Origin: an uncultured Gammaproteobacteria bacterium
GTDB taxonomy: Bacteria; Patescibacteriota; Microgenomatia; Daviesbacterales; UBA10151
Direction of reading: 5' to 3'
DNA: 58,237 nt
Assembly (NCBI GenBank): GCA_964432475.1
Contig: CAYSNN010000001.1
Coordinates: 1 to 58,237, forward strand
Under the pieces are notes generated by a model that saw nothing but the letters and a program-made list of their open reading frames with translations, was not told the origin of the DNA and made no database searches. This document shows positions 28,923 through 58,237 of this stretch, one piece after another. Every line of letters starts with the position of its first letter. Position 1 is the first letter of the stretch. Position numbers and translations under genes: made by a program.

Positions 28923-28940
28923 ATTTTTTGGGCAGTTTCA

Positions 28941-28997
28941 CCATCTATTCTCATTTTCCGCCATTTAATAATATTTTGTCAAGAGGTAACTTGTGAA
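28941..28997 (-). promoter_or_regulatory. mraZ upstream region: candidate promoter (TTCACA-N18-TATTAT) plus three ARATGR boxes at 10-nt phase
   Basis: The minus strand reads AAATGGCGGA/AAATGAGAAT/AGATGGTGAA. Plus-strand CCAT/TCAT/CCAT fall at 28941, 28951 and 28961. -10 is at 28973-28968 and -35 at 28997-28992. Confidence 0.35.
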
Positions 28998-28998
28998 A

Positions 28999-31235: not shown

Positions 31236-31240
31236 ATTTC

Positions 31241-31897: not shown

Positions 31898-33802
31898 TTA
31901 CCCCACCTTAAACTTAAATTCTTTATCCTCATCTAATTTAAAGTCTTCCATTTGTCTGCCATTAAGTTTAATTTTATATCTAAAATCTTTTGCCCCGGGT
32001 TGCTTTTGAATTAATAATCCGTACTCTCCCTGCGGATTGTAAGGGATAGTATACTCTAACTCCACTTTTCTTTTGTTCTGGGGCCTGACTGTAATAAATC
32101 CTTCAAAAACAGTTTTCCCTAAATCATCCTCTATAGTTCTAAAACCATCTTCAGAGCCTTTTCCGGAAATGAGCTTTGCTCCTCTGGGAACATAAAATCT
32201 GACATAATCACGGTTTATACCATTAAGCCATATTCCAAAAGGTTGGGGATTTTCATATTCTATTGTTATCTTCTTCTTCACTTCATCTTTTTGTATATTA
32301 ATTTCTTGGGTCACAGTTTGTTGAACGTATAAATTAGATTTTCCCCCCGCAAAGTTTGAATCATTAATATGGAGAAAATCCCCGTCAAACTGCTTGATCT
32401 CTCCTGTCCAGTCTAATTTTGACAAAGCTGTCTGGGTTGCTTGATCATGCATAAAAAACATTACATGTTTGTGATTGGCAAGCCTTGCAATAGTTTCGGC
32501 AAGCTGGGGTATTTTTTCAACGTCTGCCCCCACAGATCTTGCTAAAATCTGTTGCATTAATACTCCGAGTATTGCCTTTCTGTCTTTTTCTCCTTTAGCT
32601 GCAATTTCTGCATAAGACTCAAGTTCATATATCACATTCGGACAGTTACACCTTTTATCAGTTTCTGAAGAATATATAGTACCGAAAACATCAATAGGGC
32701 CTGTTACATCTATCATTTCCTCAACAACCTGTGAGTCTATAAAAATAATTCCGTCAAATGGCAAACCCTCCCCTAAAAGCTGATACATCCGTTCAAACTC
32801 TTTTGCTGCAGTTGGGACATCGGGTGAAATATTAGAATCCCTCATACTCCATGCAGACCTGGGTTTTCCTGAAACTTCGGGTAAATATTTAATAATCGGA
32901 GCTGGGGGAGTCAACGGGCATATTTTATTTAAGCAAACATTTAACAGCTTTTCATCCAGCCTATAAATATCATCGGAAGTTGTTGCCGAAACCTGTCCGT
33001 TTTGAATCTTCAAAGTTGCAAAAGCTGTGATAAAGCCGCCGGTTGGTCTGATTTCTTTATCGTTTTGGAAAAGTAATAGATAATTTTTTGTATCAGGTAC
33101 ACCTAAAGCTTTAGGTGCAATTACTAATGCATCCTTGCCTTCATCTACAGCAATAGAAGCGCCAATTATAAAATTTTTAGCAACTTCTATATTCTTTCTG
33201 ACTGTTCTGCCTTTGAAGCTTTCCGGGTATTTACTGGTATCAATATCCCAAACTTTCTCTGCACCTTTTCTTAAATTACCTTCAATTTTATTTACCAGAG
33301 GGATGGTTTTATTTAATATCTTAACTCCTTGAGTCACTCTGTCAGGTCCGCTTTTAGGGTGACCATCAAATCCTAACTCGTCTTTGCTTTGTTCAAGGTT
33401 TGCTAAAATTGTAGTTAAAGCAGACATTTCTTGAACTCCTGCACCGATAAACCCCTTGGTATCTGAATAGTATCCCCCTAATACAGGAATCGGTTTAATC
33501 CAAAACAGAAAATTTAAAGAGAAATTAATCTTTTGCAATCCGCCCCTTGTTGCACTTACCTCATTTTTCAAATTATTAAAATTTTGCTCTTTGTATGCAC
33601 CAATTAGAGCCTTTCCGTGAGTTGAAACTTCCTTAAAACCAAGAAAAATAAATACGGAAGGGATAATAGTTAGAATAATTAGTATCCCCAGCACCACCGA
33701 AAGCCTAATAAGCAGAACCTTTTTTTTATTACGCCTTGTGTTTCCATGTAAGCTGTCTATTTTGCTGTTTAAATTTAACAACTTCATAATACTAGACTGC
33801 AC
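31898..33802 (-). CDS. DUF4012-like membrane-anchored extracytoplasmic protein
   Basis: 634 aa with an N-terminal TM. The segment NYLLLFQNDKEIRPTGGFITAF matches the remembered DUF4012 signature (N..E.R.TGGF). Adjacent to the sugar transferase. Confidence 0.65.
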   Translation of the reverse strand: MQSSIMKLLNLNSKIDSLHGNTRRNKKKVLLIRLSVVLGILIILTIIPSVFIFLGFKEVSTHGKALIGAYKEQNFNNLKNEVSATRGGLQKINFSLNFLFWIKPIPVLGGYYSDTKGFIGAGVQEMSALTTILANLEQSKDELGFDGHPKSGPDRVTQGVKILNKTIPLVNKIEGNLRKGAEKVWDIDTSKYPESFKGRTVRKNIEVAKNFIIGASIAVDEGKDALVIAPKALGVPDTKNYLLLFQNDKEIRPTGGFITAFATLKIQNGQVSATTSDDIYRLDEKLLNVCLNKICPLTPPAPIIKYLPEVSGKPRSAWSMRDSNISPDVPTAAKEFERMYQLLGEGLPFDGIIFIDSQVVEEMIDVTGPIDVFGTIYSSETDKRCNCPNVIYELESYAEIAAKGEKDRKAILGVLMQQILARSVGADVEKIPQLAETIARLANHKHVMFFMHDQATQTALSKLDWTGEIKQFDGDFLHINDSNFAGGKSNLYVQQTVTQEINIQKDEVKKKITIEYENPQPFGIWLNGINRDYVRFYVPRGAKLISGKGSEDGFRTIEDDLGKTVFEGFITVRPQNKRKVELEYTIPYNPQGEYGLLIQKQPGAKDFRYKIKLNGRQMEDFKLDEDKEFKFKVG

Positions 33803-34421
33803 CTTTACCGGAAAGAACTGCCGGAATTGTTTTTAACATAATCCAAAAGTCATAAATTAGTGACCGCTTCTTAACATACCAGGCATCCAGTTCTACTCTT
33901 TTATCAAAATTGATCTCAGATCTTCCTGTGACTTGCCAAATACCTGTTAATCCGGGTTTTCCTGATAATATTATCTTAACAAATTTCTTAGACGAAGGAT
34001 ACTTTTCCTGTTGCTCTTCTAGCTCATAAGGATAGTAAGCCCTGGGTCCAACCAGACTCATCTCTCCCTTTAAAATATTAAGAAACTGAGGAAATTCATC
34101 GATAGAAAATCTTCTGATAAATTTTCCAACACCTGTCACTCTTGGATCATTAAAAATCTTGTAGCTGTTTTTTTTGTACTCATCAAGCAGAAGAGGGTTA
34201 TTTTCTAGTAACTCCTGCGCATTTTGTACCATAGACCGAAACTTATATATCCTAAACAATCTTCCGTTTTTTCCTGCTCTCATCGGAGTATCAGCTAGAA
34301 CCGGTCCGGGTGAATCTAATTTTATAGCGAGTGCAACAAGCATTAGTAGGGGAGAAAGAAATATCAGACCCACCAGTGAACCAACAACATCAATGGATCT
34401 TTTGGAGAAACTATAGATCAT
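33792..34421 (-). CDS. polyprenyl-phosphate phosphoglycosyl transferase (Bac_transf/WbaP-C-like initiating enzyme)
   Basis: RIYKFRSM, DEFPQFLNILKGEMSLVGPR and GLTGIWQVTGRS are present. Confidence 0.92.
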   Translation of the reverse strand: MIYSFSKRSIDVVGSLVGLIFLSPLLMLVALAIKLDSPGPVLADTPMRAGKNGRLFRIYKFRSMVQNAQELLENNPLLLDEYKKNSYKIFNDPRVTGVGKFIRRFSIDEFPQFLNILKGEMSLVGPRAYYPYELEEQQEKYPSSKKFVKIILSGKPGLTGIWQVTGRSEINFDKRVELDAWYVKKRSLIYDFWIMLKTIPAVLSGKGAV

Positions 34422-34428
34422 ATAACTT

Positions 34429-35502
34429 TTAAGTGTACACTAAATCATCAACTGTTTGCTTAAAATTTTTCAAAAAACGTTCTTTACTGAAACGACCGGC
34501 ATTTTCTCTGCAAAGAGTTTCATTGAATTTTACAGAATTTAATTTATTTATTGTATCCTTTAAGCTGCTTACTGTTTGATAGTCAAAAAGAAGACCTGTT
34601 TTACCCTCAATTACAGTCTCAGATGCACCGCCTAATCTGTAAGCTATAACTGGTTTGCCTAAAGCTTGTGCCTCAAGTGAGGTTAGACCAAAATCTTCAA
34701 TTCCCGGAATAATAAGCGCTCTGGCACCGAAAAGAACTAAAGCAAGTGTTTCATCATCGATGTCCTCTAAAAACTCTATATTCCCAGAGCCACATAGATT
34801 CTTAAGATTACCTGACTCGGGCCCTACTCCGACAATTTTTAATCTTACACCCAACTCCAAACAAGCTCTAACTGCCAAATCAACTCTTTTGTACTTATTC
34901 AGTCTTGCAATAACTAAAAAATATCCCCCGTCAAAACTTTCTAAATTATCAAATCTATTAATATCTACAAAAGGATAAACTAATACCGAATCTCTTCTAT
35001 ATGCTTTCTTTATTCTTTTCTGAGCGTTCTTAGACCCTGCTAAAAAGTAATCCACTCTATGCGAAAAAATTTGATCAGCAATTCTTAAATTGCTTAGAAG
35101 AAACTGACCAATCTTATATTTTTCTGCTCCTGAATAATTCCATAAAAATCTGGGCGGTGTATGACAATAGCTAATATGCAAAGTCTCAGGTTTTGTAATT
35201 ATAGATTTTGCAAAACGGGTGGTATGAGAAATAACTAAATCATATCCATCAAACACAAACTGCTCAAAAGCTAAAGGGTAAAGCGGCAAGAAAACTTTAT
35301 ATAGTTTTTTCCATCCGGGAATTTTTTGTAAAAAAGAAGTATAAATTTTTTTTGTACCAAAGTTTTGCAAAAGCTGGGGATTACTATAATCAAAAACAGA
35401 TGTAAAAATTGGAGCATCCGGAAAAATCTCGCAAAGCCCAACCAGCACTCTTTCCGCTCCTCCCCACTGGACTAAATCATCATGCACTAAGGCAACACGC
35501 AT
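34429..35502 (-). CDS. glycosyltransferase family 4
   Basis: GT-B C-terminal region PGIEDFGLTSLEAQALGKPVIAY. 357 aa. Confidence 0.8.
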   Translation of the reverse strand: MRVALVHDDLVQWGGAERVLVGLCEIFPDAPIFTSVFDYSNPQLLQNFGTKKIYTSFLQKIPGWKKLYKVFLPLYPLAFEQFVFDGYDLVISHTTRFAKSIITKPETLHISYCHTPPRFLWNYSGAEKYKIGQFLLSNLRIADQIFSHRVDYFLAGSKNAQKRIKKAYRRDSVLVYPFVDINRFDNLESFDGGYFLVIARLNKYKRVDLAVRACLELGVRLKIVGVGPESGNLKNLCGSGNIEFLEDIDDETLALVLFGARALIIPGIEDFGLTSLEAQALGKPVIAYRLGGASETVIEGKTGLLFDYQTVSSLKDTINKLNSVKFNETLCRENAGRFSKERFLKNFKQTVDDLVYT

Positions 35503-36611
35503 TTTTTATATACCTCCAAAGTCTGTTCAGCCAATCTTTTCCAATTAAATAATTTAACTCTTTTTTTACCTTTTGAAATAAGGCTTTTTTTGTAGTCTTC
35601 ATCATCCAAAACTTTAGATATTTTATTAATTAGATCTTTTTGATCTGATGGATCAAAAAAAATTGCAGCATTACCTGCAACTTCCGGTAAGCTGGAGGTA
35701 TTTGAGCAAACCACCGGACATCCGCAAGCCATTGCTTCTAAAACAGGTATGCCAAATCCTTCCTCAAAGGATGGTAATACGAAAAGCCTGGCTGATTTGA
35801 AAAGCGCTACCAGCTCTTCATCTGAAACAAACCCTGTATAAATAATAGATGGATCATTAGATTCTTTTCTTACCCTTTCCCAAAAATAATGATCATAACC
35901 TGAAAGCACTAATTTCAAATTGGGGTATCTTTGCTTTAATATAAGGAACGCCTTTATCAACCCATCAACATTTTTATGCGGATGCGCATTTCCCACATAA
36001 AATATGAAATCACCGTTTATCTTAAACTTTTGCAGAACTTTTTCAATATTTTTTCCGGCAATTTTTTCATTTATGGAAAGTATTTCGTTATCCACTGCCT
36101 CGTGAGTAACGATAATCTTTTCCGTACCTACATTCCATTCATCAACTAAAAGTTTTTTAACCGACTCAGAAGGGACTAAAACCTTAAGTGACTTTGTTAC
36201 TGCAGTTTTAAATACTTTTCTATAACCGAATTGTTTAATTTTGAAAGTAAAAGGGTTTAAGGTTGTTGCCCGTGTCATGGCATGATGCTGATGAATTAAA
36301 TCATGAATTGTCACTACAAATTTTCCGGTATAAAAAATGGGTACGTTAAAATGGGGAAAATGAACTAAGTCTAAATTGTACTGTTTTAAAAGTTTAGGCA
36401 GGTTAAATTGTTCTGCAAAACCATACCAGCTGCATTCAGTCTTAACCTTTTGAAAGTTTTTAGAGTTTTCAAATTCATCAAAATCCTTCGGCAATAAAAA
36501 AATGAAATACTCATTTTTTTTGTCTGAAACCATTAAATTGCTGATCAAATTTCTTAGATATCTTCCCACCCCTGACTCACTATAAAACCTGGCATCTATT
36601 CCGATTCTCAT
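35487..36611 (-). CDS. glycosyltransferase family 4
   Basis: LPSFEEGFGIPVLEAMACGCPVVCS (E-x7-E) is present. Confidence 0.88.
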   Translation of the reverse strand: MRIGIDARFYSESGVGRYLRNLISNLMVSDKKNEYFIFLLPKDFDEFENSKNFQKVKTECSWYGFAEQFNLPKLLKQYNLDLVHFPHFNVPIFYTGKFVVTIHDLIHQHHAMTRATTLNPFTFKIKQFGYRKVFKTAVTKSLKVLVPSESVKKLLVDEWNVGTEKIIVTHEAVDNEILSINEKIAGKNIEKVLQKFKINGDFIFYVGNAHPHKNVDGLIKAFLILKQRYPNLKLVLSGYDHYFWERVRKESNDPSIIYTGFVSDEELVALFKSARLFVLPSFEEGFGIPVLEAMACGCPVVCSNTSSLPEVAGNAAIFFDPSDQKDLINKISKVLDDEDYKKSLISKGKKRVKLFNWKRLAEQTLEVYKKCVLP

Positions 36612-37799
36612 CTATCTTCCTCCCAAACTTTGATAAATACTGCTTAACTTACTTGCAATCGGGTCCCAATCATATTCTACGTTTACCATCTCCCTTGCTT
36701 TCTTTATGATTTTATTATAAAGCTTTTTATCATTTAGCAACCGTACAACCGCATCGGCTATATCGGCAGGATTATCTTCTATAATTACCTCAACACCATC
36801 TTTAGCTTTAGTACCTCTAATCCCGATAGGGGTCGTCACAACCGGCAGACCGGACGCAAATGCCTCAAAATTCTTATAACGGGTCCCTCCCCCGCCATAA
36901 ATAGGTGCAACTAGAATCGAGGCTTGTTGGTAAACTGCCCGGACGTCCCGCACTTCCTCTACTCTGATATCTTTGGACCCAAGCTTTGGAAAAAATTCCT
37001 TGGCATCTTTACCGATAATCCAAAGCTTTGCACTCGGGATTATAGTTTTAACCTTAGGCCATATTTGATTGACTAATATATTTACCGCCTCTCTGTTTTG
37101 CAGCCAAGTAAAGTTTCCCAAATAAAGAATGATCGGATCTTTTAACCTTTCTTTAACTTTTTCTCCAAAAAAACGGCTATCTACACCATTGGGTACGATA
37201 TCTACATTTAAGCCTGGTAATTGGGATAACATTGATTTTTTATCTTGCTCGGACATAGCTACCACTTTTGCTGCCTTCTGCCAATATTTTAATTCCCAAT
37301 ACTTCATTTTTAAAACATCGATATATAAAAGGTGTTTAATAAACGACAGCTTAAACTCGTCTGCAAAATGACGATAGACTAAATACTCAATTGTTTGCTC
37401 AACAAGAAGTATTGGAATATTGGTTTTTGGAATATGGGGCATCACATAAAAGGTTTCTGCGTGAATTAAATCAAATTGACCTCTCTTTAATTTTTCTTGT
37501 ATAGCTTTTTTTTCACCCCAGGCCCAATTTCTTATTACCAGAAAAGGGAAGTAACTAAATCCGGTCCGTAAAATATTTATTAAGGTCCACGGCTTTTGTG
37601 GACGGTTAAAAACTTGAACCTCCGTACAAAACTTCTGCAGCTCTGGTACATATTCCCTTTCACTGTCATCTTTCACTAAACAAAATAAAGTTATTTCATG
37701 GTTCAACTGCGATAACCTTTTAATTAAGTTGTATGATCTGGTCTGGCCACCTGTTAAAAGAGGATATGGAAGATATGGTGTTAACATCAGTATCTTCAT
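36612..37799 (-). CDS. glycosyltransferase family 4-like (GT-B)
   Basis: The N-terminal PYLPYPLLTGGQTRSYNL and C-terminal GGGTRYKNFEAFASGLPVVTT are present. Confidence 0.75.
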   Translation of the reverse strand: MKILMLTPYLPYPLLTGGQTRSYNLIKRLSQLNHEITLFCLVKDDSEREYVPELQKFCTEVQVFNRPQKPWTLINILRTGFSYFPFLVIRNWAWGEKKAIQEKLKRGQFDLIHAETFYVMPHIPKTNIPILLVEQTIEYLVYRHFADEFKLSFIKHLLYIDVLKMKYWELKYWQKAAKVVAMSEQDKKSMLSQLPGLNVDIVPNGVDSRFFGEKVKERLKDPIILYLGNFTWLQNREAVNILVNQIWPKVKTIIPSAKLWIIGKDAKEFFPKLGSKDIRVEEVRDVRAVYQQASILVAPIYGGGGTRYKNFEAFASGLPVVTTPIGIRGTKAKDGVEVIIEDNPADIADAVVRLLNDKKLYNKIIKKAREMVNVEYDWDPIASKLSSIYQSLGGR

Positions 37800-37800
37800 T

Positions 37801-39267
37801 TTAAGGCTCCGGGTCTTTAGGATTTAAAGGTTTTTCAATAAACCTTAAATCAGCAATCACAAATTTAGGATTATTTTCTAAAATACGGAAGTGTCTTAAT
37901 ACCCAGTTTGTTTTATCATCCCGTGAGGTAGAAACAAAGTGAGTTACTCCGTAATCGGAAACTAAATCAACCAGCGGCAACGCAGTTACAGGCCAACCCG
38001 GTCTGTTAGTCTGGTACAAAAATGCAGTATCACCATTATATGGCGCAACCACCACTGCATCCTTTGGTAAAATTTTATCCGCGAGCTTTCCCGCTTCGAT
38101 AATCACCGGATTATTTATTTGGTAAAATCCTTTTACCTGAGTCCAGCTAAAATAGAAAGACAAAGGTAAAAATAGCAAGGCAACTGCTATGGTCCAAAAT
38201 CTTGGCAAAAATGCCGGAACACCTCTTGTTAGAAACAGAAATCCTTGAGTGAAAAATACTGCAACCACCGGCACAGAAATATACTGGTAATAATTATGTC
38301 TCACATTTCCTGTGGCAAAAACAATAAAATATAAAAAAATGGACAAAACCCAAATATGAAGAAAGAGATTTTTCGGCCTGGCAATTAAACCTAAAACAAA
38401 CAATACTAAGCCGGTTGCCCCTAATATCTCTCTGCCTAATCTCTCGGATACTAACCACCACCAAAATGCCGGACGGAAACGGATATGATCTCCATTTAAC
38501 AACCAGTTTGATGCGGGGATTCCCTGGGGCTGCTGTAAAATCCAAAGTCTCCAAATAACAAACGGAAGCAATGCAATTATTCCCGGTAAGACAAACTTTT
38601 TTGAAAAATCCCTAATACTTCTAGAATTAATCAGGGCAGAATATATTAAAGGAGGTGTAAAAAATAATGCCCAAGGTTTTATTAAAAACGCCAGCATAGT
38701 AAACAACACCCCCCAAATACCCCAAATCACCCTTCTCTCCCAAATCCACTTATCAACAAAATACATCATTCCCAAAGCAAAAAAAAGAAATGTGGGTTCA
38801 GGTAGGGTAGTCCGCGAAAAAAATACATTAAATGGAAGAAGTGAATAGATGGCTGCAGTAAAAAGTGAATTTATTTTTCCTAAATATCTTTTGCAGATAA
38901 AATATAAAAAAACAATACTCCCGAGTGAAAACAAAACTGAAACAAGCCGGGAATATTTATCATCTATCCCGAAAAATAAATAAAAGGGTAAAGTTGCCAA
39001 ATTGTATATCGGAAACTCAACAAATCTGAAACGTGCAGGATTTGCTAGTGGGTTTTCAGAAACTCCCGACATATCATCATAGCGGGGGTATAAAACATTT
39101 AAGCCTTCCTTTACAAAATTCCTTGTTACCGCTGCGGTATCCGCTTGCCGCCAAGAATGCCAATCAGCAATAGGTGAATCAATTCTATAGAGTCTGGCGG
39201 TTAGTGCAATTAGTAAAATAAGAGTCAACCACAAATATTGATTTTTTAAAACATTAATTAGTTTCAT
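37801..39267 (-). CDS. GT-C glycosyltransferase, family 39/ArnT-PMT-like
   Basis: Polytopic, with the first loop ADWHSWRQADTAAVTRNF. The ATG at 39267 forms an ATGA overlap with the upstream stop. The track ORF extends to 39309. Confidence 0.7.
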   Translation of the reverse strand: MKLINVLKNQYLWLTLILLIALTARLYRIDSPIADWHSWRQADTAAVTRNFVKEGLNVLYPRYDDMSGVSENPLANPARFRFVEFPIYNLATLPFYLFFGIDDKYSRLVSVLFSLGSIVFLYFICKRYLGKINSLFTAAIYSLLPFNVFFSRTTLPEPTFLFFALGMMYFVDKWIWERRVIWGIWGVLFTMLAFLIKPWALFFTPPLIYSALINSRSIRDFSKKFVLPGIIALLPFVIWRLWILQQPQGIPASNWLLNGDHIRFRPAFWWWLVSERLGREILGATGLVLFVLGLIARPKNLFLHIWVLSIFLYFIVFATGNVRHNYYQYISVPVVAVFFTQGFLFLTRGVPAFLPRFWTIAVALLFLPLSFYFSWTQVKGFYQINNPVIIEAGKLADKILPKDAVVVAPYNGDTAFLYQTNRPGWPVTALPLVDLVSDYGVTHFVSTSRDDKTNWVLRHFRILENNPKFVIADLRFIEKPLNPKDPEP

Positions 39268-40679
39268 TTGAATTTTAAAGCTGCCAAATTTAACCCTAGA
39301 ATCATCCAAAACAAAGAGGCCACTTTCGACGCCTCAAAAACATCAATAAACAAACTGTTTAAAATAAAGGCCAGCATTAAAGACAAAACTCCTGCCGAGA
39401 AATATTTGATAAATTTTTCACTGCTTTTAAACAAAACCCAAATTCTTTTTGAGATATCGATCAAAAGCAGTATAAACGCTGAGGTACCCAGTAAACCCAC
39501 CTCCCCCAGTGAACGCAATACGTCATTATCTGTAGCAATACCCAGAGATGAATAACCTGTTCCCAGTATTGGATTTTTTATTAAGGCCGCAATAGCTCTT
39601 GGCCATTCTATGTTTAATCTGATAGAAAAAGATCTATAAACCCCAAGTTCAGTAGTATCCACAGGTTCACCGGGAGTGATGTCGGTTGGTACAGCCGAAT
39701 CTGTTGCAAAGGTAGACGTTTCAGCCGAGCTACTCGATGTCTTTATAGCCAAAGTTGGAATATTCAGCCTATTTCTTATTCTTTGATCATCCGTCTTACC
39801 CTGGTAACTCTGCCATTGGTTTAGAAGATTTACTGTAACTGTTGAAATAAGCCGATTTCTCAAATTTGAGGGATATACCAAAACCAAAGCTAAAACAATG
39901 ACTAAAAACAGCAGGTATTTTTTTTTGCCGATTAAAAAAAGTGATGCTACAATTCCGAAGATTGCTGCAACAAACGAAACTCTTGCCGATGTCATTACAA
40001 GCACTACTGAGGAAAAAGCACCCAGAATTAAGATCCAAAACTTAATGCTTTTTCCTGCTACAAAAAACAGCGGCACCATTAAACATAAAGCCATCGTTAA
40101 AAATGCTGCAAAATCATAGTGCCCTGCAAATGAAGAGTTCACTCTTGCCTCAGGGGATAACCTTAAAATTAATCCTTTCGCAAACTCTGAATTAGTTGTC
40201 GATATAACAGGCCAGTTTAAATATTGCTGCCCTAAAGCATATATATTCGTTGATAGTAAAACCAATGACAGGACAACTAAGCTGAAAACCAGCTGTTTTT
40301 TTGTCTTAAAAACAGAAACAACAACTGGAAGCAGTAACATAAATTCAACTCTACGTAGCCAGTGAAATAAAGCCAAATTTAAACTCACTGTATGAGTTAA
40401 AAAAACCGCGGAAAAAAGAGAAAGTAAACCAATACTCAAAAAAAGTATTATTAGCTGATTTGTTCTGTATGCAAAAAAATTTTTTACTTCATTAGACAAT
40501 AAAAGAGTTAGTGACCATACAACTATTACAAAAGCAATTAAAGTATCCTCCAATCTAATTGCCACAAAAGTCCCTTTAACATTAAGTAGGGGAAACTTTG
40601 GATAGAGAGGAATAAATATAAATAGAAAAAGAACCGGCCAAAAAAGAAGCGAATTAATTTTTGTAGCTAGCTGTTTCAT
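39264..40679 (-). CDS. O-antigen ligase/polymerase-like (Wzy_C family) membrane protein with a Ser/Thr-rich loop
   Basis: 471 aa and multi-TM. TSARVSFVAAIFGI is present, as is a large loop AIKTSSSSAETSTFATDSAVPTDITPGEP...GTGYSS. Confidence 0.65.
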   Translation of the reverse strand: MKQLATKINSLLFWPVLFLFIFIPLYPKFPLLNVKGTFVAIRLEDTLIAFVIVVWSLTLLLSNEVKNFFAYRTNQLIILFLSIGLLSLFSAVFLTHTVSLNLALFHWLRRVEFMLLLPVVVSVFKTKKQLVFSLVVLSLVLLSTNIYALGQQYLNWPVISTTNSEFAKGLILRLSPEARVNSSFAGHYDFAAFLTMALCLMVPLFFVAGKSIKFWILILGAFSSVVLVMTSARVSFVAAIFGIVASLFLIGKKKYLLFLVIVLALVLVYPSNLRNRLISTVTVNLLNQWQSYQGKTDDQRIRNRLNIPTLAIKTSSSSAETSTFATDSAVPTDITPGEPVDTTELGVYRSFSIRLNIEWPRAIAALIKNPILGTGYSSLGIATDNDVLRSLGEVGLLGTSAFILLLIDISKRIWVLFKSSEKFIKYFSAGVLSLMLAFILNSLFIDVFEASKVASLFWMILGLNLAALKFK

Positions 40680-42991: not shown

Positions 42992-42997
42992 ACCATA

Positions 42998-47571: not shown

Positions 47572-47573
47572 TG

Positions 47574-50691: not shown

Positions 50692-52204
50692 TTTTTCTGA
50701 TATATGCCCTGTAGCCTCCTTCCTTAATAGATTGTAGATGAGAAAGATCTTCTTTAAGAGGAATCCTGTCTTCAGACAGTATTACCGTATATTTTGATGG
50801 CTCTTTACTGATTTCATCAGGATATAACCACCCCAGGTTTTTATCCGTGTAACTTTGGTTTGGTACTCTACCATAAATTTTGAAAAGATATCTCCACCCT
50901 TCATAATCGTGACATATTCCCCGTCCTTCAATTGAAAAAGGATCATTTTCTACAACCTTCATTACCTTATTTATTAATATCTTTTTAGGTCTTAGGCTAA
51001 ACTCGTCTGATATTTTTAAAACAGTGTTAATTCCTGCCAAAGGCGCCAAAATGATTAAGAGAATAGGTAACTGAGAGTTTTTCATTTTGCTAATTAAAAT
51101 TCCCGGGACAAAAGTAAACAAAACCAATATAGATAAAGCGTAATACTCGGAGGAACCGCCGGGGAAAATAGTAAAAAATAGCAAAGCAGCCGCTAAAAAA
51201 ATTCCCAATAATCTTTCTTGTCTGCTTTTACTCTTTATACTTACTGCCAAAAAAATCAATAAAGAAGCTGCAGTAATTAAAGATAGCCACCGGGGTGCAT
51301 AAGTTCTGTGGGCATACTTATCAATGATTTTAAATTCCGGTTTTACTGATAAAGATGTACAACCAAAATTTATCTCATCGGCATTAGGGTTGCCTTGCTT
51401 TAAATACCAAAACCTCCCTAAACTATCAAAAAGGGTTTTATACTTGGCAGTTGGATTAAAGGCAATCTTTGATTGATTAAGCTGGTCATTAAACTTAGGA
51501 AAAATTGCCCAGTTACTAAAATTATGATTGTAATCAAAAACCGCCAAAGGCCAATAGAAGATAACAAACACTATTAAACACACAAGTAGAAGTTTTATCT
51601 TTTTAAAGTAACCGCCTTTAATAAAATACCAAACCCCAATTAAGATCAGGGGGGCTGGTTCCAGGTGGGTTTCCAATACAACCCCAAAAAGCGCTGCAAA
51701 TAATACCCACCACCAGTAAGATTTTTTAATTAAATACATTGCCACAAAAAGTAAAATAGTTATCAGCGGAACAAACATTGTATTCCAATACTTTTGGTCA
51801 AAGAAAACAAATAGCGGCAAGGATGCATAAAGCAGTGAAGCGGTAATTCCCGTTTTTAAACTGAAAATTTTCCAACCCGTAAAAAAGACAGCAACCGTAG
51901 TTACAACACCTAAAAAGGCGGCAAAATAGGCAGTAATCATCGGATCACCATGAGAAATAGCTAAAAGTATGGCCGTAAAGTAGGTAAAATAGGGCCCAAG
52001 GTAAAAATCCAAAAAAGACGAACTGACCCCAATCCAAATAGGATGGGGGTCCAAAACTTGCGTCCACGCATAAGTTGCCTGGTACTCTTCGTCAAAATTA
52101 AAAACATATATATTAGAGAGGTTATGAAATCTTAATAATGCCGAAAGGGCAATTATAAGGATCAAAAAAATAATTGCTTTATATTGTTTAATAATTCTTT
52201 TCAT
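50684..52204 (-). CDS. GT-C glycosyltransferase, family 39/ArnT-PMT-like
   Basis: LLRFHNLSNIYVFNFDEEYQATYAW carries a DE motif. 506 aa and polytopic. Confidence 0.78.
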   Translation of the reverse strand: MKRIIKQYKAIIFLILIIALSALLRFHNLSNIYVFNFDEEYQATYAWTQVLDPHPIWIGVSSSFLDFYLGPYFTYFTAILLAISHGDPMITAYFAAFLGVVTTVAVFFTGWKIFSLKTGITASLLYASLPLFVFFDQKYWNTMFVPLITILLFVAMYLIKKSYWWWVLFAALFGVVLETHLEPAPLILIGVWYFIKGGYFKKIKLLLVCLIVFVIFYWPLAVFDYNHNFSNWAIFPKFNDQLNQSKIAFNPTAKYKTLFDSLGRFWYLKQGNPNADEINFGCTSLSVKPEFKIIDKYAHRTYAPRWLSLITAASLLIFLAVSIKSKSRQERLLGIFLAAALLFFTIFPGGSSEYYALSILVLFTFVPGILISKMKNSQLPILLIILAPLAGINTVLKISDEFSLRPKKILINKVMKVVENDPFSIEGRGICHDYEGWRYLFKIYGRVPNQSYTDKNLGWLYPDEISKEPSKYTVILSEDRIPLKEDLSHLQSIKEGGYRAYIRKNE

Positions 52205-52209
52205 TGATG

Positions 52210-52938
52210 CTAATCGGAAAATCTAAATTTTAATATGGTCCAAATAGCTTTTAATCCGTCAACAAAACCGATCTTTTTACCTTCCTCATAATTTCTCGGT
52301 TTTACCTTAATAGGGACTTCAATAATATCAAAACCTGCTTTGACAATTTTGCTGGTTATCTCCGGTTCAAATTCGAAGCGGTTGGACTTTAAACTTATCT
52401 TATTTAAAATCTCTTTCGAAAATAATTTGTAACAAGTCTCCATATCTGTCAGGTTTGAGCCATAAATGAAATTAAATAATGCGGTTAAGAATTTATTGGC
52501 TATTAAGTGGGAAGGTAAAACGGTTTTGTTTCTTCCCCAAAGCTTTAAGGGGTAATTTACTAACCTTGTGCCATATACTACTTCTGACCGGTTTTGTATA
52601 ATGGGTTCCAATAATCTATTATAGTCCCACGGGTCATATTCCAAATCTGCATCCTGGATTATTATAAATTCCCCTGATGCTTCGTTTAACCCGGTTTTGA
52701 TCGCTGCCCCTTTACCTAAATTTTTTTTATGCTGAAGAAATTTAAATTTTACGAATTTTACTTTCGAGAGGACAGCAGATGTTTGGTCGGTCGAACAATC
52801 GTCAATTACAATGATTTCTTTTTTAAAATCTTTCTGCAAATTAACTTCACCTACCTTTTTAAGCAGCTCCTTAACTGTTTTTTCTTCATTAAAAACCGGG
52901 ATAATAATAGAAAGTGTTTTCATACTACTTTTTAGCAA
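52210..52938 (-). CDS. GT2 polyprenyl-phosphate glycosyltransferase (Dpm1/GtrB/ArnC-like)
   Basis: [34 protein letters not shown] and [11 protein letters not shown] are present. The likely true start is the ATG at 52923 (MKTLSIIIP). Confidence 0.8.
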
Positions 52939-53614
52939 TTACCAAAATCGAAAGCCCAAAAGGTGCACCGAAAATTTGTTCAAGCGATAAAGCAATGGGA
53001 GCAATTAAATTAAAAATTCTTATTTTTTCCTCTTCGACCATGTTATTTTTTAAAACCTTGGCAGAAACAAACCAACCGATGGCGCCTAATATATTTAAAA
53101 ATTTTGTTTTGACAATATTAAAACCGCATCCTTCTAAAAGCTTTGTCAGCTTTTTTTTACTATACCTGCGGTGGTGTAAAATTGCACGATCTATTTCTCC
53201 ATATAAAAATTGGTGGGCTGGTACAAGCAAAATTAAGTGGCCGCCAACTTTTAAAAGTTGATACATGTTTTTAAGCGCCTGTTCGTCATTTTTTATATGC
53301 TCTAAAACATTAATGCAAACTATATTATCGAATAATTTTTCTCCGAAAAAATATTTTCCGCTTTCTATATCCCCAAAACCTGCCTGATCCTTTTTATTAA
53401 TTTTTCTTTTTGTAATCCCGATGTAATCCCGATTAATATCGATTGCATACACATTACCGTATGTTTCTAAAGTTTTGGTGAAGTTTCCTATTCCACATCC
53501 TATTTCTAAAATGTCGCCTTTTAGTAATTTACTAAACTGACTCAAGGTCCAGCGGTTATACCAAGCTGCCTGACTCATAGATTCCAAGGTTACAGTTCCG
53601 TTAGTATTACTCAA
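52925..53614 (-). CDS. class I SAM-dependent methyltransferase
   Basis: [12 protein letters not shown] (motif I), VYAIDIN and [10 protein letters not shown] are present. Confidence 0.82.
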
Positions 53615-54429
53615 AACAGTATTCTCCTTTTCAATTTCCTGATAGGTGTTAATAATTTTGCCCTAAATAACTGCACTCCCAAGATCCTATTCCAAGGAGA
53701 CCTGACTGATGACGGATATTCCCTGAAGAAAACTTCCGGAAAATTAAATTTATCGGAAACCTGACTGCCCAACTCATATTTAAATTTATTTTCTCTATTT
53801 GGCTGACTGGATCTTTTTAGGTGAGTGACATGTAAAAAAGGCGCGTCTAAAAAAATAATATCTTTTCTTTCCTGAATTTTTGTATTTTCTTCATCAAAAT
53901 AGCCTTCCTTTGGATAAGGTAAATCTGTATGCAACCCGGGAATTTTTTTGTTAATAACTTTTAAACTAAGGTGGCCTGTCCTGCCAAGAATTTTATACCT
54001 GCCGGCCTTTTCTTCCTGTATATGATAAATATCCCCTACCGGAACTACCATAGGAACGACTATCCCGCTACTTTGTGCATTCTTATTGATTTCGTTAACT
54101 AATTTTTTTATTGAAGAATTCCACCAAATTTCATCCCCGTCCAAAATCAGTATCCAATCACAATCAGACTCTTCAAGCATTCTCTGCCGCATTTTGGTAA
54201 AGGCATATTTATCAACTGCTCCTACTTGTTTAAACTCCACTTTTTTCCCTTTAATCTTTATAATTTCTTCAATAATTTTAACTGTTTCATCGGTTGAACC
54301 GGTATCATAAATCAACACTTTATCTACAAAGTCTACAACACTCATGACAGCAAACCAAATAAAATTTTCTTCATTATTTACAATAGTATGTGCCCAAATT
54401 TTCATCTTCGTAATTTGATTAGTAACCAA
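53611..54429 (-). CDS. glycosyltransferase family 2-like
   Basis: IVNNEENFIWFAVMSV..VLIYDTGSTDET and WILILDGDEIW (DxD) are present. The likely start at 54405 gives an ATGA overlap with the wzx stop. Confidence 0.72.
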   Translation of the reverse strand: MVTNQITKMKIWAHTIVNNEENFIWFAVMSVVDFVDKVLIYDTGSTDETVKIIEEIIKIKGKKVEFKQVGAVDKYAFTKMRQRMLEESDCDWILILDGDEIWWNSSIKKLVNEINKNAQSSGIVVPMVVPVGDIYHIQEEKAGRYKILGRTGHLSLKVINKKIPGLHTDLPYPKEGYFDEENTKIQERKDIIFLDAPFLHVTHLKRSSQPNRENKFKYELGSQVSDKFNFPEVFFREYPSSVRSPWNRILGVQLFRAKLLTPIRKLKRRILF

Positions 54430-55670
54430 ATCAACGGGTAAATAAAATTAAACGCAGTACCAACCAATACTGTAATTGAGGCGCCAATTATTCCAAAATT
54501 TGAAATCATTATATATCCTAATCCTCCTGTTAGAATTAAGTTGCCGATCGCAACTCCTATAAATATATCCGGCCTGCCAAAATAAAAAATTACACTACTG
54601 TGAACGGGAACTGAAATAAGAAAAACAAGCATAGCGAGAAGTAAGAAGATAAACGGGATTATTGTCTGTTGGTATTCTTTCCCATAAATAACTGGAATCA
54701 AGTAGGATATTATAGGGATGGATAAAACTCCTAATAAAAAAATGCCGGAAACAAACAGTTGAAATTTCTTAAAATAAATAACCATTTGTCCGTCATTTTG
54801 AAAGCCGGAAAATTTAGGAGCGGCAACCAATCCTAAAGCAGTAACCAATTGGGGTACCACTTGTACCAGTTGGTTGGCTGCGCCATAAATTCCAACTTCC
54901 TTTGCGCTCAGCAAGGCTGCATTTAAAAATGTATCTAACCTGGATGAAAAAGCAGAAATTATTGTAAAAATTGCCACCGGGATATTATATTTAAACAATT
55001 CTCTGGAAAGCATAAGCTCATTTTTGCTTTCCAATATTTTTCTGGTTGGTAAAAAGTAAAGGCTCATAAAAAATCCAAAAAAAGGTAAAATTATATATAC
55101 AAGTAAACTACTTTGGATATTGACTCCTAAAGAGTAAATCAACAAAACGAGTAAAGCTAATCTTGATAGATTTGTCGTAATATTTATTCCGCTCCAGAGA
55201 AAATATTTTTGGAAAGCCTGGAGGGAAGATGTTGCAAAAGAAAATAAAAGTGCTCCGCCCACCCCAAACGCTACCAGGCGCAATGGTAAAATTAGCTGCT
55301 CTTTATGAAAAATCTCCTGAGCCAAAACCGGAGCGGAAAAGGAAATTATCAAGAAAACAACCAACCAAACTGCTATCTTTATCTCCAGGGTTAATTTCAA
55401 AAATCTCATTGCTTTGTCCTGATCATAAGTTAAATTGGATGACACAAAACGAATAAGTCCGGTGTTAGTACCAATATCTGCCATATCAGCAACTAGAGTA
55501 AGAGTAACTATAGAAATAGTTAATAAACCAAATTCCTCCGGCCCCATAATCCTTGCGACCAAGATATAGAATAAAGCACCAAGCAGACCATTTAACATGG
55601 TTCCCGCGACCGTTATGCCGGATTGCCTGAATGTTGCGGTGTTAACAATAATCTCCAAAAATTTCTTCAT
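54402..55670 (-). CDS. Wzx-like polysaccharide flippase (MOP superfamily)
   Basis: 422 aa with about 12 TM helices. The N-terminus reads GITVAGTMLNGLLGALFYILVARIMGPEEFG. Confidence 0.75.
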   Translation of the reverse strand: MKKFLEIIVNTATFRQSGITVAGTMLNGLLGALFYILVARIMGPEEFGLLTISIVTLTLVADMADIGTNTGLIRFVSSNLTYDQDKAMRFLKLTLEIKIAVWLVVFLIISFSAPVLAQEIFHKEQLILPLRLVAFGVGGALLFSFATSSLQAFQKYFLWSGINITTNLSRLALLVLLIYSLGVNIQSSLLVYIILPFFGFFMSLYFLPTRKILESKNELMLSRELFKYNIPVAIFTIISAFSSRLDTFLNAALLSAKEVGIYGAANQLVQVVPQLVTALGLVAAPKFSGFQNDGQMVIYFKKFQLFVSGIFLLGVLSIPIISYLIPVIYGKEYQQTIIPFIFLLLAMLVFLISVPVHSSVIFYFGRPDIFIGVAIGNLILTGGLGYIMISNFGIIGASITVLVGTAFNFIYPLIWLLIKLRR

Positions 55671-55679
55671 CAGCTTCCA

Positions 55680-58181
55680 TTATACTAAAAGTAGGAATAG
55701 AGAGGCTAATAAGGTTAAGATTGAGATTACCAGTCCGGGCAGGATATATCTTTGTGGCTCAAAGCTCAATTCGTATTGACCACTCTTTTCTATACTATAT
55801 CCATTCAACAGACTGTAAACCGGAAAGGGAGACCTGCCGTCTAATTTCCACTTGTTGTCAAAGCTCTGCGAGAAAATAAGCATGCTAGGTTGTTTTAAAT
55901 TTTGAATTGAAACTATATATTTAGTAGGATTAATTTGTTTATAGCCGACTGAAGCACTTGCCTCATGAGCTCCTTTACCAAAGCTGACTACTCTGTCTTG
56001 ATAAACTTTTGCTTTGTTTTTATTTCCCTGCCATAGGGAAAGCGGCAATACAGCTAGGGCATTTACCACATTAATCTCACCTTGAGTTTTGATAGTTAGC
56101 TCACTATCATCAATTAAACTTCCTACTTCAAACCATCTGACATTATCACCGGGACTTTTTGTATTAATTTGACCTATTAACCTTTCTCCTTCATAAAAAC
56201 TTACCTGTCCGCTCCTGGTACTTTCTAAAACTCTTGCCAGCAGAATTTTTCCTTTTGTAAATTGTAAATTGTAAATTGTAAATTGTCTCTCCCCCTCTCC
56301 GACCGCCCATCCTCCACCCAGGTCAAAATCCTGGTTATTAATACCATATTTTGTTTTAAGAAAATCCCTCCAGTTAATTAAATCTGCTGCTTCTTGCTTC
56401 CACCAACCAGATGCGTCCGGATCGTGTTTTAATCTGTTAGCCGGAAAGATTAAATCGTTCTTTTTTAAAAAGCTGGCAGCTAAATCCAGAGACGTTTTAT
56501 GGTTTAAAATTATTTTTGCCTGAGGTACTTCATCAAATCTTTGACCTAACTCAGAGAATTCCTCTGTAAATATGAGCGCATTCTTAGAGAGTTTTAGGTT
56601 TGCGCTTTTTGTGGCTTCATTATAGACACTATCTGACCCTATCACCCACCAAGCATTTGGTGTGATGAAAAATCTATCCTGGTGTTCTGATACTTTGAGA
56701 AGTGGAATTGTAGAATTATCTACTCTTGTTAACCAGGATCTGTTTGAGAGTTGGTCTAAGAAAGTGTAGTAATATTTAATATTATCCGGATGCATATTGT
56801 CTCGTCTTTGATCAAGATAGGGATAAGCAATATAGCCAATTCCTGCAACATCAAAAATTTCCCCCATGTAAGGTGCTTCTCTCAGGAAATTATATGTTTC
56901 ATAGGTACCCTTTACCCCTGCGTTGAAGGGTCTTCGCTGTACCAGGCGTGCAGCTTCCACCCTGGGATGAATTTTGCTGGAATAACCTAATGAAGGAAAT
57001 GAGGGTATCCAGAATATCCGGCTAAAATTCTTATCTCTTTCTATAAATTGACTTAAGTTTGCAAACTCATGTTGAAATACGGGCTGAGTAAATGTACCGG
57101 TCATCTGCCCAAGCCAAACCTGCCGCAGGAGCAATATAAAATAGCTACACAAAAAAATAATAAAAATTTTTTTAAGCTTAGGTCTTGTTATCCTTTTAAG
57201 AATTTCTTCCGTAGTTATTCCCAATAAGACACTGTACGAAAGCGCTACAAGAAAGAAGAATTTAGTTGAATCACGAAATAACGAAAAACCTGGTATATGC
57301 GAAAAAAGCCAGGGATAAGCTGCCGATAAAGGCTCCGATGATCCTTTAGTTAAGAATATGGAAAATATAGAGATTAATAACCAGAATCCGACAACGGGGT
57401 TATTAGGGCGCAAAATAGGCGCTAAAAATACAAGCATCGGAATAAAAATAAATTCAGGACGAAGAGTTGTGATATTACCAAAGATATTTTTAAACCAATG
57501 AGGCGTAAGCAACAATATACTATGACCTAGATTTATAAAGCTTAAAAAAGAAGTCTGGGTAAAAAAAGCATAAGTACCGGAGGAGATGGGGTTATTAAAT
57601 AACGGTAATAACCAATAAGCATTTAACCCTGCCACTATTATACCAATAATTACTCCACTGTTTATCCAGCCAAAAAACAAAGAGATTCTTTTTTTAGGAT
57701 CCAATAACAATTGATAAAAAAACATTGCCAGGCTAAGCAACAATAAAACATAAATAAATCTAAAATCAAAAAAACCTAAAATTGAAACTGCTAAACCCGC
57801 CCGGACTTTTTTATTAAAACCTCCAATAATTGATTTTTCTAATGCCAGGAAGGCTAGAGGAAACCAGGCATAGGCAAGTGCTATAGATAATTGTCCACCA
57901 TCAATAACTAAAATAATATAAGTAGTTGTTAAATAGAACAAAGAGGCAATAAATCTGGCAGCATCAGTTAATTTAATGCTTCCGCAAAATTTCCAAATTC
58001 CAATACACCCTATAAGCAAAAAGGGTATTAAAAAAAGTACTCTTTCTATAATATCAAAACCTAAACCAACATTTGCCAGAATACCCGATATTAATGAGGT
58101 CGGCCAAGACCAAAGGAAAAATGTCGAATACTCCCCTAACCCTTCTGCACCATTCTCTGACCAGACGAAAGGTAAAATCAT
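55680..58181 (-). CDS. large polytopic membrane protein with an extracytoplasmic domain of about 380 aa and a C-terminal TM anchor (GT-C-like candidate); may be 5'-partial
   Basis: 833 aa from the first Met. The frame stays open upstream to the window edge (…PKVANDFPIVPDSLLKSS-MILPFVW). About 12 N-terminal TM helices, a soluble region, then the terminal TM LPGLVISILTLLASLFLLLV. Confidence 0.6.
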   Translation of the reverse strand: MILPFVWSENGAEGLGEYSTFFLWSWPTSLISGILANVGLGFDIIERVLFLIPFLLIGCIGIWKFCGSIKLTDAARFIASLFYLTTTYIILVIDGGQLSIALAYAWFPLAFLALEKSIIGGFNKKVRAGLAVSILGFFDFRFIYVLLLLSLAMFFYQLLLDPKKRISLFFGWINSGVIIGIIVAGLNAYWLLPLFNNPISSGTYAFFTQTSFLSFINLGHSILLLTPHWFKNIFGNITTLRPEFIFIPMLVFLAPILRPNNPVVGFWLLISIFSIFLTKGSSEPLSAAYPWLFSHIPGFSLFRDSTKFFFLVALSYSVLLGITTEEILKRITRPKLKKIFIIFLCSYFILLLRQVWLGQMTGTFTQPVFQHEFANLSQFIERDKNFSRIFWIPSFPSLGYSSKIHPRVEAARLVQRRPFNAGVKGTYETYNFLREAPYMGEIFDVAGIGYIAYPYLDQRRDNMHPDNIKYYYTFLDQLSNRSWLTRVDNSTIPLLKVSEHQDRFFITPNAWWVIGSDSVYNEATKSANLKLSKNALIFTEEFSELGQRFDEVPQAKIILNHKTSLDLAASFLKKNDLIFPANRLKHDPDASGWWKQEAADLINWRDFLKTKYGINNQDFDLGGGWAVGEGERQFTIYNLQFTKGKILLARVLESTRSGQVSFYEGERLIGQINTKSPGDNVRWFEVGSLIDDSELTIKTQGEINVVNALAVLPLSLWQGNKNKAKVYQDRVVSFGKGAHEASASVGYKQINPTKYIVSIQNLKQPSMLIFSQSFDNKWKLDGRSPFPVYSLLNGYSIEKSGQYELSFEPQRYILPGLVISILTLLASLFLLLV
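56255..56286. repeat. heptanucleotide tandem repeat (TTGTAAA x 4.6) inside the 833-aa membrane-protein gene
   Basis: Plus strand: ttgtaaa ttgtaaa ttgtaaa ttgtaaa ttgt. The coding strand reads ACAATTT x4 and encodes QFTIYNLQFT. Confidence 0.95.
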
Positions 58182-58237
58182 AGACGATTTAAGTAAAGAG
58201 TCCGGGACTATTGGGAAATCATTGGCTACTTTTGGAC

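Follow-up and report, generated by a model that had tools for sequence, protein, structure and literature searches.

In mycobacteria and corynebacteria, several membrane glycosyltransferases of the GT-C class (AftA-D, Emb and Mpt) extend lipid-linked arabinogalactan, lipomannan (LM) and lipoarabinomannan (LAM) on the outside of the membrane, drawing on polyprenyl-phosphate sugars supplied by synthases such as Ppm1 and PpgS. Three-component systems (GtrA/GtrB/GtrC, GacI-L, CsbB/GtcA/YfhO and the GT136 pentofuranose system of Kelly et al. 2024, PMC11127046) also join a GT2-family polyprenyl-phosphate-sugar synthase to GT-C transferases, and can be composed of a synthase, a MATE/MOP flippase and a GT-C enzyme that bears a carbohydrate-binding module (CBM) (PMC11127046). 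Here we describe a run of 23 consecutive minus-strand open reading frames (ORFs), extending over about 26 kb from 58181 down to 31898 of the 58,237-nucleotide contig CAYSNN010000001.1 of assembly GCA_964432475.1 (called the window below), in which enzymes of these kinds are interleaved with genes typical of Wzx/Wzy-type polysaccharide loci. The cluster is a sugar-polymer assembly operon unusually rich in membrane GT-C enzymes. On balance, gene content and homology make it probable that the locus builds a lineage-conserved cell-envelope glycan of the Microgenomates by a hybrid of two known routes, and we consider a polysaccharide or lipoglycan anchored in the wall or membrane a better candidate for its product than a variable capsule.

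Bacteria of the candidate phyla radiation (CPR, or Patescibacteria) are ultra-small, mostly uncultured and live attached to other cells. To our knowledge, almost nothing is known of their envelope chemistry. A locus of about 20 genes that adjoins the peptidoglycan genes, and is conserved as they are, would therefore open a genetic route to what may be the principal envelope polymer, besides peptidoglycan, of the whole class. The initial annotation of this DNA, made from the sequence alone, had allowed that the gene set might prove to be a characterised pathway. The literature searched contains no such set with an assigned product, and no account of the cluster, of how far it is conserved or of its content of GT-C enzymes. 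The principles involved are known; what is new is their combination, the number of GT-C enzymes, the lineage-wide conservation and the position beside the division and cell wall (dcw) cluster.

The resemblance to arabinogalactan and LM/LAM synthesis lies in the use of several GT-C enzymes, in a cluster enzyme with the AftD fold and carbohydrate-binding modules (ORF 55680), in the synthase family (ORF 52210, which matches PpgS and dolichol-phosphate-mannose synthase, DPMS), and in a product that would be a conserved core polymer of the envelope. However, no genes of the decaprenyl-phospho-arabinose pathway (UbiA-type phosphoribosyl-pyrophosphate transferase, DprE1/E2) were found among the window ORFs scanned, and neither an Lcp ligase nor genes for a phosphatidylinositol anchor are in view. 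The priming enzyme is of the WbaP type and not WecA, the cluster has a MOP flippase and a Wzy_C protein, and the host is a monoderm-like CPR bacterium. AftD itself shares only about 9% sequence identity with the family of ORF 55680 and is longer (~1400 versus 880 residues). The initial annotation had seen LM/LAM-type logic rather than O-antigen logic in this arrangement. The AftD-like enzyme lends support to the analogy, whereas the exclusion of O-antigen logic does not stand, because the half of the cluster formed by the phosphoglycosyl transferase (PGT), Wzx and Wzy_C proteins follows the classical scheme for O-antigen and exopolysaccharide (EPS), which makes the system a hybrid.

Like the three-component systems, the cluster combines a GT2 synthase with GT-C transferases, places its MOP flippase gene next to that of a CBM-bearing GT-C enzyme, and includes optional GT-C cassettes that would vary the decoration. 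It differs in lacking a detected GtrA-like protein and in the number of its GT-C enzymes, of which a locus encodes six where those systems have one; four of the six are core and invariant rather than serotype-converting accessories. With Wzx/Wzy loci it shares the PGT, the GT4 and GT2 glycosyltransferases, a Wzx-type flippase, a Wzy_C protein and an acetyltransferase. The closest example is the EPS cluster of Bifidobacterium longum 105-A, in which a DUF4012 gene lies immediately beside the priming glycosyltransferase gene (PMC5412050), an adjacency that recurs here. Unlike such loci, the cluster has no Wzz-type polysaccharide co-polymerase (PCP) or tyrosine kinase, is not hypervariable, is interleaved with GT-C genes and is fixed beside the dcw cluster. 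A further parallel is offered by the rhamnose-rich wall polysaccharides of lactococci and streptococci, which are linked to viability and receive some of their parts outside the membrane from GT-C enzymes that use undecaprenyl-phosphate (Und-P) sugars (PMC10821137, PMC11754754). These too are specified by a large single-strand locus with a conserved core and variable parts, although the present cluster has no rhamnose biosynthesis genes or ABC transporter and uses a different initiating enzyme.

Conservation of the cluster and its position

The best database matches of the window proteins are to Candidatus Daviesbacteria, in agreement with the CPR-like host proposed earlier, and the closest named genome (RIFCSPLOWO2_02_FULL_38_15) shares 89% identity for ORF 46240. 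We used this ORF to anchor a scan of one genome per species of the Genome Taxonomy Database (GTDB), which returned 50 loci from Daviesbacteria, Woesebacteria, Amesbacteria and unclassified Microgenomates. A second scan for related metagenome contigs was anchored on the DUF4012 gene. Gene order was established by tblastn of all window proteins against these loci, and presence was counted over the loci that cover the gene in question.

Strict collinearity of 19 core genes extends to 45 of the 48 informative species-level loci, even where identity falls to 30-40%, and each core gene is present in 87-100% of the genomes that cover it. A comparison of synteny across Patescibacteria, which the initial annotation had named as a check, thus finds the same order more often than chance would give. 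The cluster lies directly upstream of recO, glyS, mraZ and the dcw genes, and this position is conserved as well: among the ~35 long metagenome contigs that extend so far, most preserve the order glycan cluster, recO, glyS, 301-residue ORF, mraZ, mraW, penicillin-binding protein (PBP) and mur genes, with local departures in L105-L107, L118 and L129. Across 19 contigs that hold both gene sets, median identity is 64% for the glycan genes and 67% for the dcw genes. The glycan genes therefore diverge at a housekeeping rate, unlike those of capsule or O-antigen loci.

Variation is concentrated at two slots that gain and lose GT-C cassettes, both of which are filled in the window. Slot A, between ORFs 52210 and 49741, is empty in most of the loci that cover it (gap of 2-85 nucleotides, nt) and otherwise holds one or two genes like ORF 50684, sometimes with an extra gene for a left-handed beta-helix (LbH) protein. 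Slot B, between ORFs 45209 and 41891, is empty in just over half of the covering loci (gap of about 3-110 nt); elsewhere it contains ORF 43639 with ORF 42998, a GT-C gene like ORF 50684, or an unrelated ORF of about 510 residues. The presence counts reflect this division between core and cassette, with ORF 37801 found in 41 of 41 loci and ORF 47574 in 40 of 46, against 14 of 41 for ORF 50684 and 4 of 45 for ORF 43639. A conserved core with two cassette slots could underlie species-specific surface recognition.

Within the window, the ORF listing and junction analysis bear out the tight packing that had been described. The widest gap among the 23 ORFs is 9 nt (at 55670/55680), and five junctions are exact 4-nt overlaps of the ATGA type. 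Three more, at 39309, 49016 and 54429, appear as long overlaps (-46, -25 and -28 nt) that shrink to ATGA or GTGA overlaps when translation is taken to begin at the following in-frame start codon. Close spacing (12, 5 and -1 nt) continues through recO (31241-31885), glyS (29904-31235) and the 301-residue ORF as far as 28999, again as annotated. The minus strand carries nearly everything from 8093 to 58237, and co-directionality is thus not peculiar to the glycan genes. GC content is uniform across the window (0.34-0.39) and is the same in the cluster as in its flanks. Promoter-like and terminator-like sites occurred at chance frequency only in a scan of the window, which yields nothing firm on operon structure.

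ORF 55680 runs past the end of the window, which therefore does not contain the cluster's upstream boundary. In two related contigs, the region upstream of the orthologue of this ORF (L001:778-7979 and L002:1-9786) encodes two or three giant polytopic proteins of 1008-1177 residues, each with ~11 N-terminal transmembrane (TM) helices, a 'YGGGD.GLPT' loop and a C-terminal TM helix, one of which carries the Pfam domain GT-C_AftD. GT-C-like proteins of 500-550 residues and small membrane proteins of 113-164 residues are encoded there too. Because relatives carry these further GT-C genes upstream, the full locus is expected to be larger than the part within the window.

Enzymes of the cluster

A family could be assigned to 20 of the 23 ORFs with Pfam and NCBIfam, and Pfam agrees almost item by item with the gene classes first listed for the cluster (PGT, GT4, GT2, Wzx, methyltransferase, LbH and DUF4012). 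Six of the products are GT-C enzymes: four are recognized by PMT_2 (Pfam cut-off 26.1 bits), ORF 46240 through its orthologues and ORF 55680 by its fold.

ORF 55680 (55680-58237) is predicted to be an AftD-like GT-C enzyme with extracytoplasmic, CBM-like beta-sandwich domains and a C-terminal TM helix, and belongs to a large unannotated family. It had been listed as a polytopic candidate of 833 residues (55680-58181). The first point is borne out by the fold; the end of the ORF is not, since the frame stays open to 58235 and PKVANDFPIVPDSLLKSS precedes the listed methionine. Orthologues have about 880 residues, with ~45 more at the N-terminus that include the first TM helix and an invariant aspartate in a 'PRVAxDFP' loop. 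No Pfam domain is found in this ORF or in its ~300 orthologues, and PDB searches by sequence and profile returned nothing useful for this family or for that of ORF 46240, so that fold comparison alone was informative. An AlphaFold2 model of a 73%-identical orthologue, P0002 (pLDDT 84.8, pTM 0.82), finds mycobacterial AftD (6w98) as its best Foldseek match in the PDB (E 2.8e-12, TM-score 0.51), followed by AglB, AftA, PglB and ArnT, and the C-terminal beta-sandwich domains of the model match CBM6 modules. In an hhalign comparison, the family aligns with a 1164-residue paralogue from a relative that bears the Pfam domain GT-C_AftD (97.5% probability, E 5.9e-12). ORF 55680 also has a weak NCBIfam match to MmpA, which fits the AftD-like assignment because the AftD membrane domain is found in MmpA as well (PMC8698533). 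A profile search of 1.84 billion representative proteins returned 8040 relatives at E<=0.001 and 1595 at E<=1e-30.

The core GT-C enzymes encoded by ORFs 47574 (47574-49016) and 37801 (37801-39309, with a likely start at the ATG at 39267) match PMT_2 with 53.8 and 54.6 bits, and the former also matches NCBIfam Agl23 (39.6 bits). The two accessory enzymes are the product of ORF 43639 (43639-45222; slot B), which matches both PMT_2 (42.7 bits) and PMT (30.1 bits), and that of ORF 50684 (50684-52204; slot A), which at 25.1 bits falls just under the PMT_2 cut-off and has orthologues that reach 26.4 and 29.4 bits. These are the four ORFs to which an ArnT/PMT-type DE motif in the first loop had been ascribed. 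PMT_2 similarity extends to all of them, marginally so for ORF 50684, and the motif is present in ORFs 43639 (RNDEA), 47574 (WFDEG) and 50684 (FDEE); loop 1 of ORF 37801 instead reads DWHSWRQAD. With their matches to PMT_2 or PMT, nothing was found to suggest that these GT39-like proteins are not glycosyltransferases.

ORF 46240 (46240-47571), a putative fourth core GT-C enzyme, has no Pfam match of its own, and hhalign gave no signal between its family and the neighbouring PMT_2 enzyme of ORF 47574. It is assigned as a divergent PMT_2 protein because many of its orthologues carry PF13231 (30.8-45.9 bits); one is named 'Glycosyltransferase RgtA/B/C/D-like domain-containing protein' in UniRef. 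Of the further polytopic candidates proposed earlier, ORFs 46240 and 55680 are thus retained as GT-C enzymes, whereas ORF 42998 (42998-43642) remains without a family. It encodes a membrane protein of 214 residues with ~5 TM helices that travels with the accessory gene 43639: the two co-occur in L004, L021 and L023, each of which has both flanking genes, and ORF 42998 is found with its downstream neighbour at the truncated start of L060.

A single ORF, 52210 (52210-52938), belongs at the family level to the polyprenyl-phosphate-sugar synthases (Dpm1/GtrB/ArnC/AglJ/PpgS-like), judging by its matches to Glycos_transf_2 (112.9 bits) and, in NCBIfam, to AglJ (114 bits), PpgS (63.9), PgfS (63.1) and ArnC (60.4), all of the NCBIfam matches lying below the equivalog cut-offs. 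Its best PDB match is Pyrococcus DPMS (5mlz, E 1.6e-14 over residues 5-211), with ArnC and GtrB sll0501 also found, and it has no TM helix. The suggestion that one GT2 protein is Dpm1/GtrB-like is therefore supported at the level of family.

The predicted cytoplasmic enzymes begin with a small monotopic polyprenyl-phosphate PGT (33792-34421; Bac_transf 205.8 bits), the priming enzyme, which corresponds to the C-terminal catalytic domain only of WbaP/WcaJ (NCBIfam EPS_sugtrans 251 bits and WbaP 249 bits over the last ~200 profile positions). Six GT4 glycosyltransferases are encoded at 34429-35502 (Glycos_transf_1, 75 bits), 35487-36611 (Glycos_transf_1, 141.8 bits), 36612-37799 (Glyco_trans_1_4, 79.5 bits; TIGR03087, 149 bits), 41891-42991 (Glycos_transf_1, 124.8 bits), 45209-46243 (Glycos_transf_1, 64.8 bits; Glyco_transf_4, 60 bits) and 49741-50691 (Glycos_transf_1, 91.4 bits), the last with a short N-terminal domain. 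Two further GT2 enzymes match Glycos_transf_2 (48992-49744, 54.8 bits; 53611-54429, 46.7 bits). Candidate modifying enzymes are a WcaF-like polysaccharide O-acetyltransferase of the LbH type (41221-41904; Hexapep 66.8 bits, NCBIfam WcaF family 94 bits) and an S-adenosylmethionine (SAM)-dependent methyltransferase (52925-53614; Methyltransf_23/11/12, 60-68 bits), the latter probably a sugar O-methylase.

The polytopic protein of ORF 39264 (39264-40679; ~10 TM helices) matches Wzy_C with 31.2 bits, marginally below the cut-off of 31.7 bits. It is present in 43 of 43 genomes with invariant residues R233, R276, R349, R354, H187 and D189, and it has no relative in NCBIfam or, by sequence and profile search, in the PDB. 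Always beside its gene is ORF 40679 (40679-41224; 45 of 45 genomes), which specifies a bitopic protein of 181 residues with a TM helix at each end, an outer domain of ~130 residues, and invariant residues Y15, S36, D41, R57, P85-E86, P107 and K144. Searches of Pfam (even at E<=5), NCBIfam and PADLOC returned nothing for ORFs 40679, 42998 and 28999. The MOP-family, Wzx-like flippase of ORF 54402 (54402-55670; Polysacc_synt 87 bits, Polysacc_synt_3 74.5 bits, ~10 TM helices) could carry either an oligosaccharide on undecaprenyl diphosphate (Und-PP) or a polyprenyl-phosphate-sugar donor.

The DUF4012 protein (31898-33802; 88.3 bits) belongs to a family enriched in CPR and Gram-positive bacteria (PMC6744442). 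Its AlphaFold2 model (pLDDT 75.4, pTM 0.74) predicts an N-terminal TM helix followed by a long helical bundle, a central alpha/beta domain and a C-terminal beta-sandwich, all extracytoplasmic. Foldseek found no PDB structure below 1e-3 for this model, profile searches found no PDB relative either, and no similarity to PCP proteins is detectable despite the helical bundle. A role as a ligase of the LytR-CpsA-Psr (LCP) type was considered and rejected as unsupported: 3tep ranks only 42nd (E 0.045, TM-score 0.31), and LytR_cpsA_psr is not matched at E<=10 in 22 members of the family. The locus thereby gives a context to three families, namely DUF4012, the 181-residue bitopic protein and the 880-residue AftD-like proteins (>1,500 representative clusters at E<=1e-30), and brings predicted AftD-like GT-C enzymes to light outside the Actinobacteria.

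Proposed pathway and competing explanations

Gene content, folds, conservation and synteny come directly from the analysis; from here on we infer how the steps follow one another and which donors, sugars and acceptor they use. The small PGT would prime polyprenyl phosphate with a sugar-1-phosphate at the cytoplasmic face, after which the six GT4 and two GT2 enzymes would build an oligosaccharide of up to about nine sugars, which would receive O-acetyl groups from the WcaF-like LbH enzyme and methyl groups from the SAM-dependent methyltransferase. The MOP flippase (ORF 54402) would transfer the lipid-linked material to the outer face, where the Wzy_C-like protein, together with its invariable 181-residue partner, would polymerise the unit or ligate it to an acceptor. 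In parallel, the GT2 enzyme of ORF 52210 is predicted to produce a polyprenyl-phosphate monosaccharide. From this donor the core GT-C enzymes (ORFs 37801, 46240, 47574 and the AftD-like 55680) could extend or branch the glycan outside the membrane, and the optional cassettes (ORF 50684; ORF 43639 with ORF 42998) in the two slots would produce species-level variation on a conserved core. That two coupled routes feed one product, as the initial annotation put it, is supported by some 50 species but not proven: both routes are taken to serve the same product because their genes are interleaved and have been inherited jointly in a fixed order.

Several points weigh against this pathway. The functions of all cluster genes are assigned by homology, enzymes of the PMT_2 family can glycosylate proteins too, and the marginal Wzy_C match fits a polymerase, a ligase or an O-oligosaccharyltransferase alike. 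A lone polyprenyl-phosphate-sugar synthase stands against six GT-C enzymes. No canonical LCP ligase, Wzz/PCP protein, GtrA-like flippase or sugar-nucleotide gene was found in the cluster or within 10 kb of it in 133 related loci, and attachment, chain-length control and donor flipping are therefore left without an assigned protein. In particular, Pfam detects Wzz in none of the 23 ORFs, the small membrane ORFs do not match GtrA even at E<=5, and a regular-expression search found canonical LCP motifs in no window ORF and in none of the 133 loci. In three-component systems, a MOP/MATE flippase can stand in for the GtrA-type donor flippase (PMC11127046). In addition, the genome scan rested on two peptide patterns only, with breadth and absences incompletely sampled, and because recO and glyS separate the cluster from the dcw genes, the closeness of the two may be a matter of general CPR synteny and not of function.

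The main rival is a general system for protein O-glycosylation, which we regard as a serious but rather doubtful alternative. The Wzy_C-like protein would then act as an O-oligosaccharyltransferase of the PglL/WsaB type that transfers the oligosaccharide from Und-PP en bloc to surface proteins such as those of the S-layer or pilins, while the PMT_2-type GT-C enzymes would add single sugars from the polyprenyl-phosphate donor to serine or threonine residues of proteins or to the protein-bound glycan. O-oligosaccharyltransferases belong within the Wzy_C family, PMT_2/PMT is the family of the protein O-mannosyltransferases, and the absence of a PCP, with about nine cytoplasmic glycosyltransferases, suits a defined oligosaccharide better than a polymer. 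Lineage-wide conservation is typical of general glycosylation systems, and ORF 52210 matches PgfS and AglJ, which serve protein glycosylation. There is also a precedent in streptococci, where a GtrB-type synthase and a GT-C enzyme glycosylate Ser/Thr-rich regions of membrane proteins (PMC12041528). However, the cluster encodes no candidate substrate protein, and its five or six GT-C paralogues exceed the number in any known protein O-glycosylation system. The CBM6-like domains modelled for ORF 55680 argue for a glycan acceptor, and the closest structural relatives of this enzyme work on polysaccharides. A second and stronger Wzy_C protein elsewhere in the window (3120-4271) could equally be the ligase or transferase.

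It is less likely again that two or more independent pathways merely share the operon, with the PGT, GT4 and Wzy_C proteins making a Wzx/Wzy-type polysaccharide, and ORFs 52210 and 54402 with the GT-C enzymes forming separate three-component systems that decorate other envelope components, for example peptidoglycan, proteins or a polymer resembling teichoic acid. The block 55680-54402-53611-52925-52210 does resemble a self-contained three-component system (PMC11127046), and CPR genomes keep long co-directional arrays of unrelated genes, as the presence of recO and glyS in the same array illustrates. Nevertheless, the GT-C genes are interleaved with GT4 genes and not grouped, the full gene order has been inherited as a unit in 45 of 48 genomes and the two halves were never found apart, and a role for ORF 54402 in flipping the monosaccharide donor would leave the PGT route with no flippase in the cluster. 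A horizontally acquired capsule or EPS island of the ordinary, strain-variable kind would account for the gene classes present (PGT, GT4, GT2, Wzx, Wzy_C and acetyltransferase are those of EPS loci) and for the DUF4012 gene beside a priming glycosyltransferase gene, as in B. longum. It is highly improbable, and we reject it on conservation, GC content and fixed position, given that order and content are preserved across Daviesbacteria, Woesebacteria and Amesbacteria, that divergence keeps pace with the dcw genes, that GC content equals that of the flanks and that the chromosomal position does not change.

The envelope-glycan reading can be carried further, more tentatively, to a lineage-defining and probably indispensable wall glycopolymer or lipoglycan of the Microgenomates, its synthesis chromosomally coupled to the dcw cluster, which would take in CPR bacteria the place of arabinogalactan/LAM or streptococcal rhamnopolysaccharides. 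The DUF4012 protein, as a new type of ligase or scaffold, and the 181-residue protein would then perform the missing steps of attachment and export, and the swappable GT-C cassettes would vary the surface for host attachment or phage recognition.

Neighbouring genes and minor observations

Downstream of the cluster, the minus-strand region 14732-31885 encodes recO, glyS, the 301-residue protein and, as identified with Pfam, a dcw cluster of mraZ, mraW, an ftsI-like PBP gene, Mur ligase genes, murB, murA, mraY, ftsW, murG, ftsQ, ftsA and ftsZ. The 301-residue protein (28999-29904) has one N-terminal TM helix and is kept between glyS and mraZ in all of the long related contigs (28-70% identity). 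The murB-like ORF (23782-24366) encodes only 194 residues and matches just FAD_binding_4; relatives have an orthologue with 63-71% identity, and the short form may be normal for the lineage. The sole obvious mobile element in the window is an IS200-like Y1 transposase gene on the plus strand (13568-14278; Y1_Tnp 38.3 bits), located between an isoleucyl-tRNA synthetase-like gene and ftsZ.

A second set of glycan genes occupies 2054-7269, on the opposite side of the dcw cluster. It consists of a PIG-V-like GT-C gene on the minus strand (2054-3118; Mannosyl_trans2 23.7 bits), the plus-strand gene for the second Wzy_C protein (3120-4271), whose 58 bits exceed the score of ORF 39264, a GT4 gene (4246-5364), a methyltransferase gene (5370-6047) and a second MOP flippase gene (6040-7269; Polysacc_synt 105 bits, and MatE). 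The window thus contains two Wzy_C proteins and two MOP flippases, those of 2054-7269 being only distantly related to their counterparts in the main cluster, for which this pair could supply the missing ligase or donor flippase. Next to this set, a plus-strand ORF (1326-2057) encodes a protein of 243 residues with a bacterial Ig-like domain (Big_6) and a Glucodextran_B domain, possibly a glycan-binding surface protein.

The title 'uncultured Gammaproteobacteria bacterium' is borne by a series of related entries (binchicken TPA metagenome-assembled genomes; L004, L008, L012-L018, L021, L022, L024, L029, L031-L034, L037 and L051), and one entry is titled 'Alphaproteobacteria'. Gene content and identity to Daviesbacteria suggest that these proteobacterial titles are wrong.

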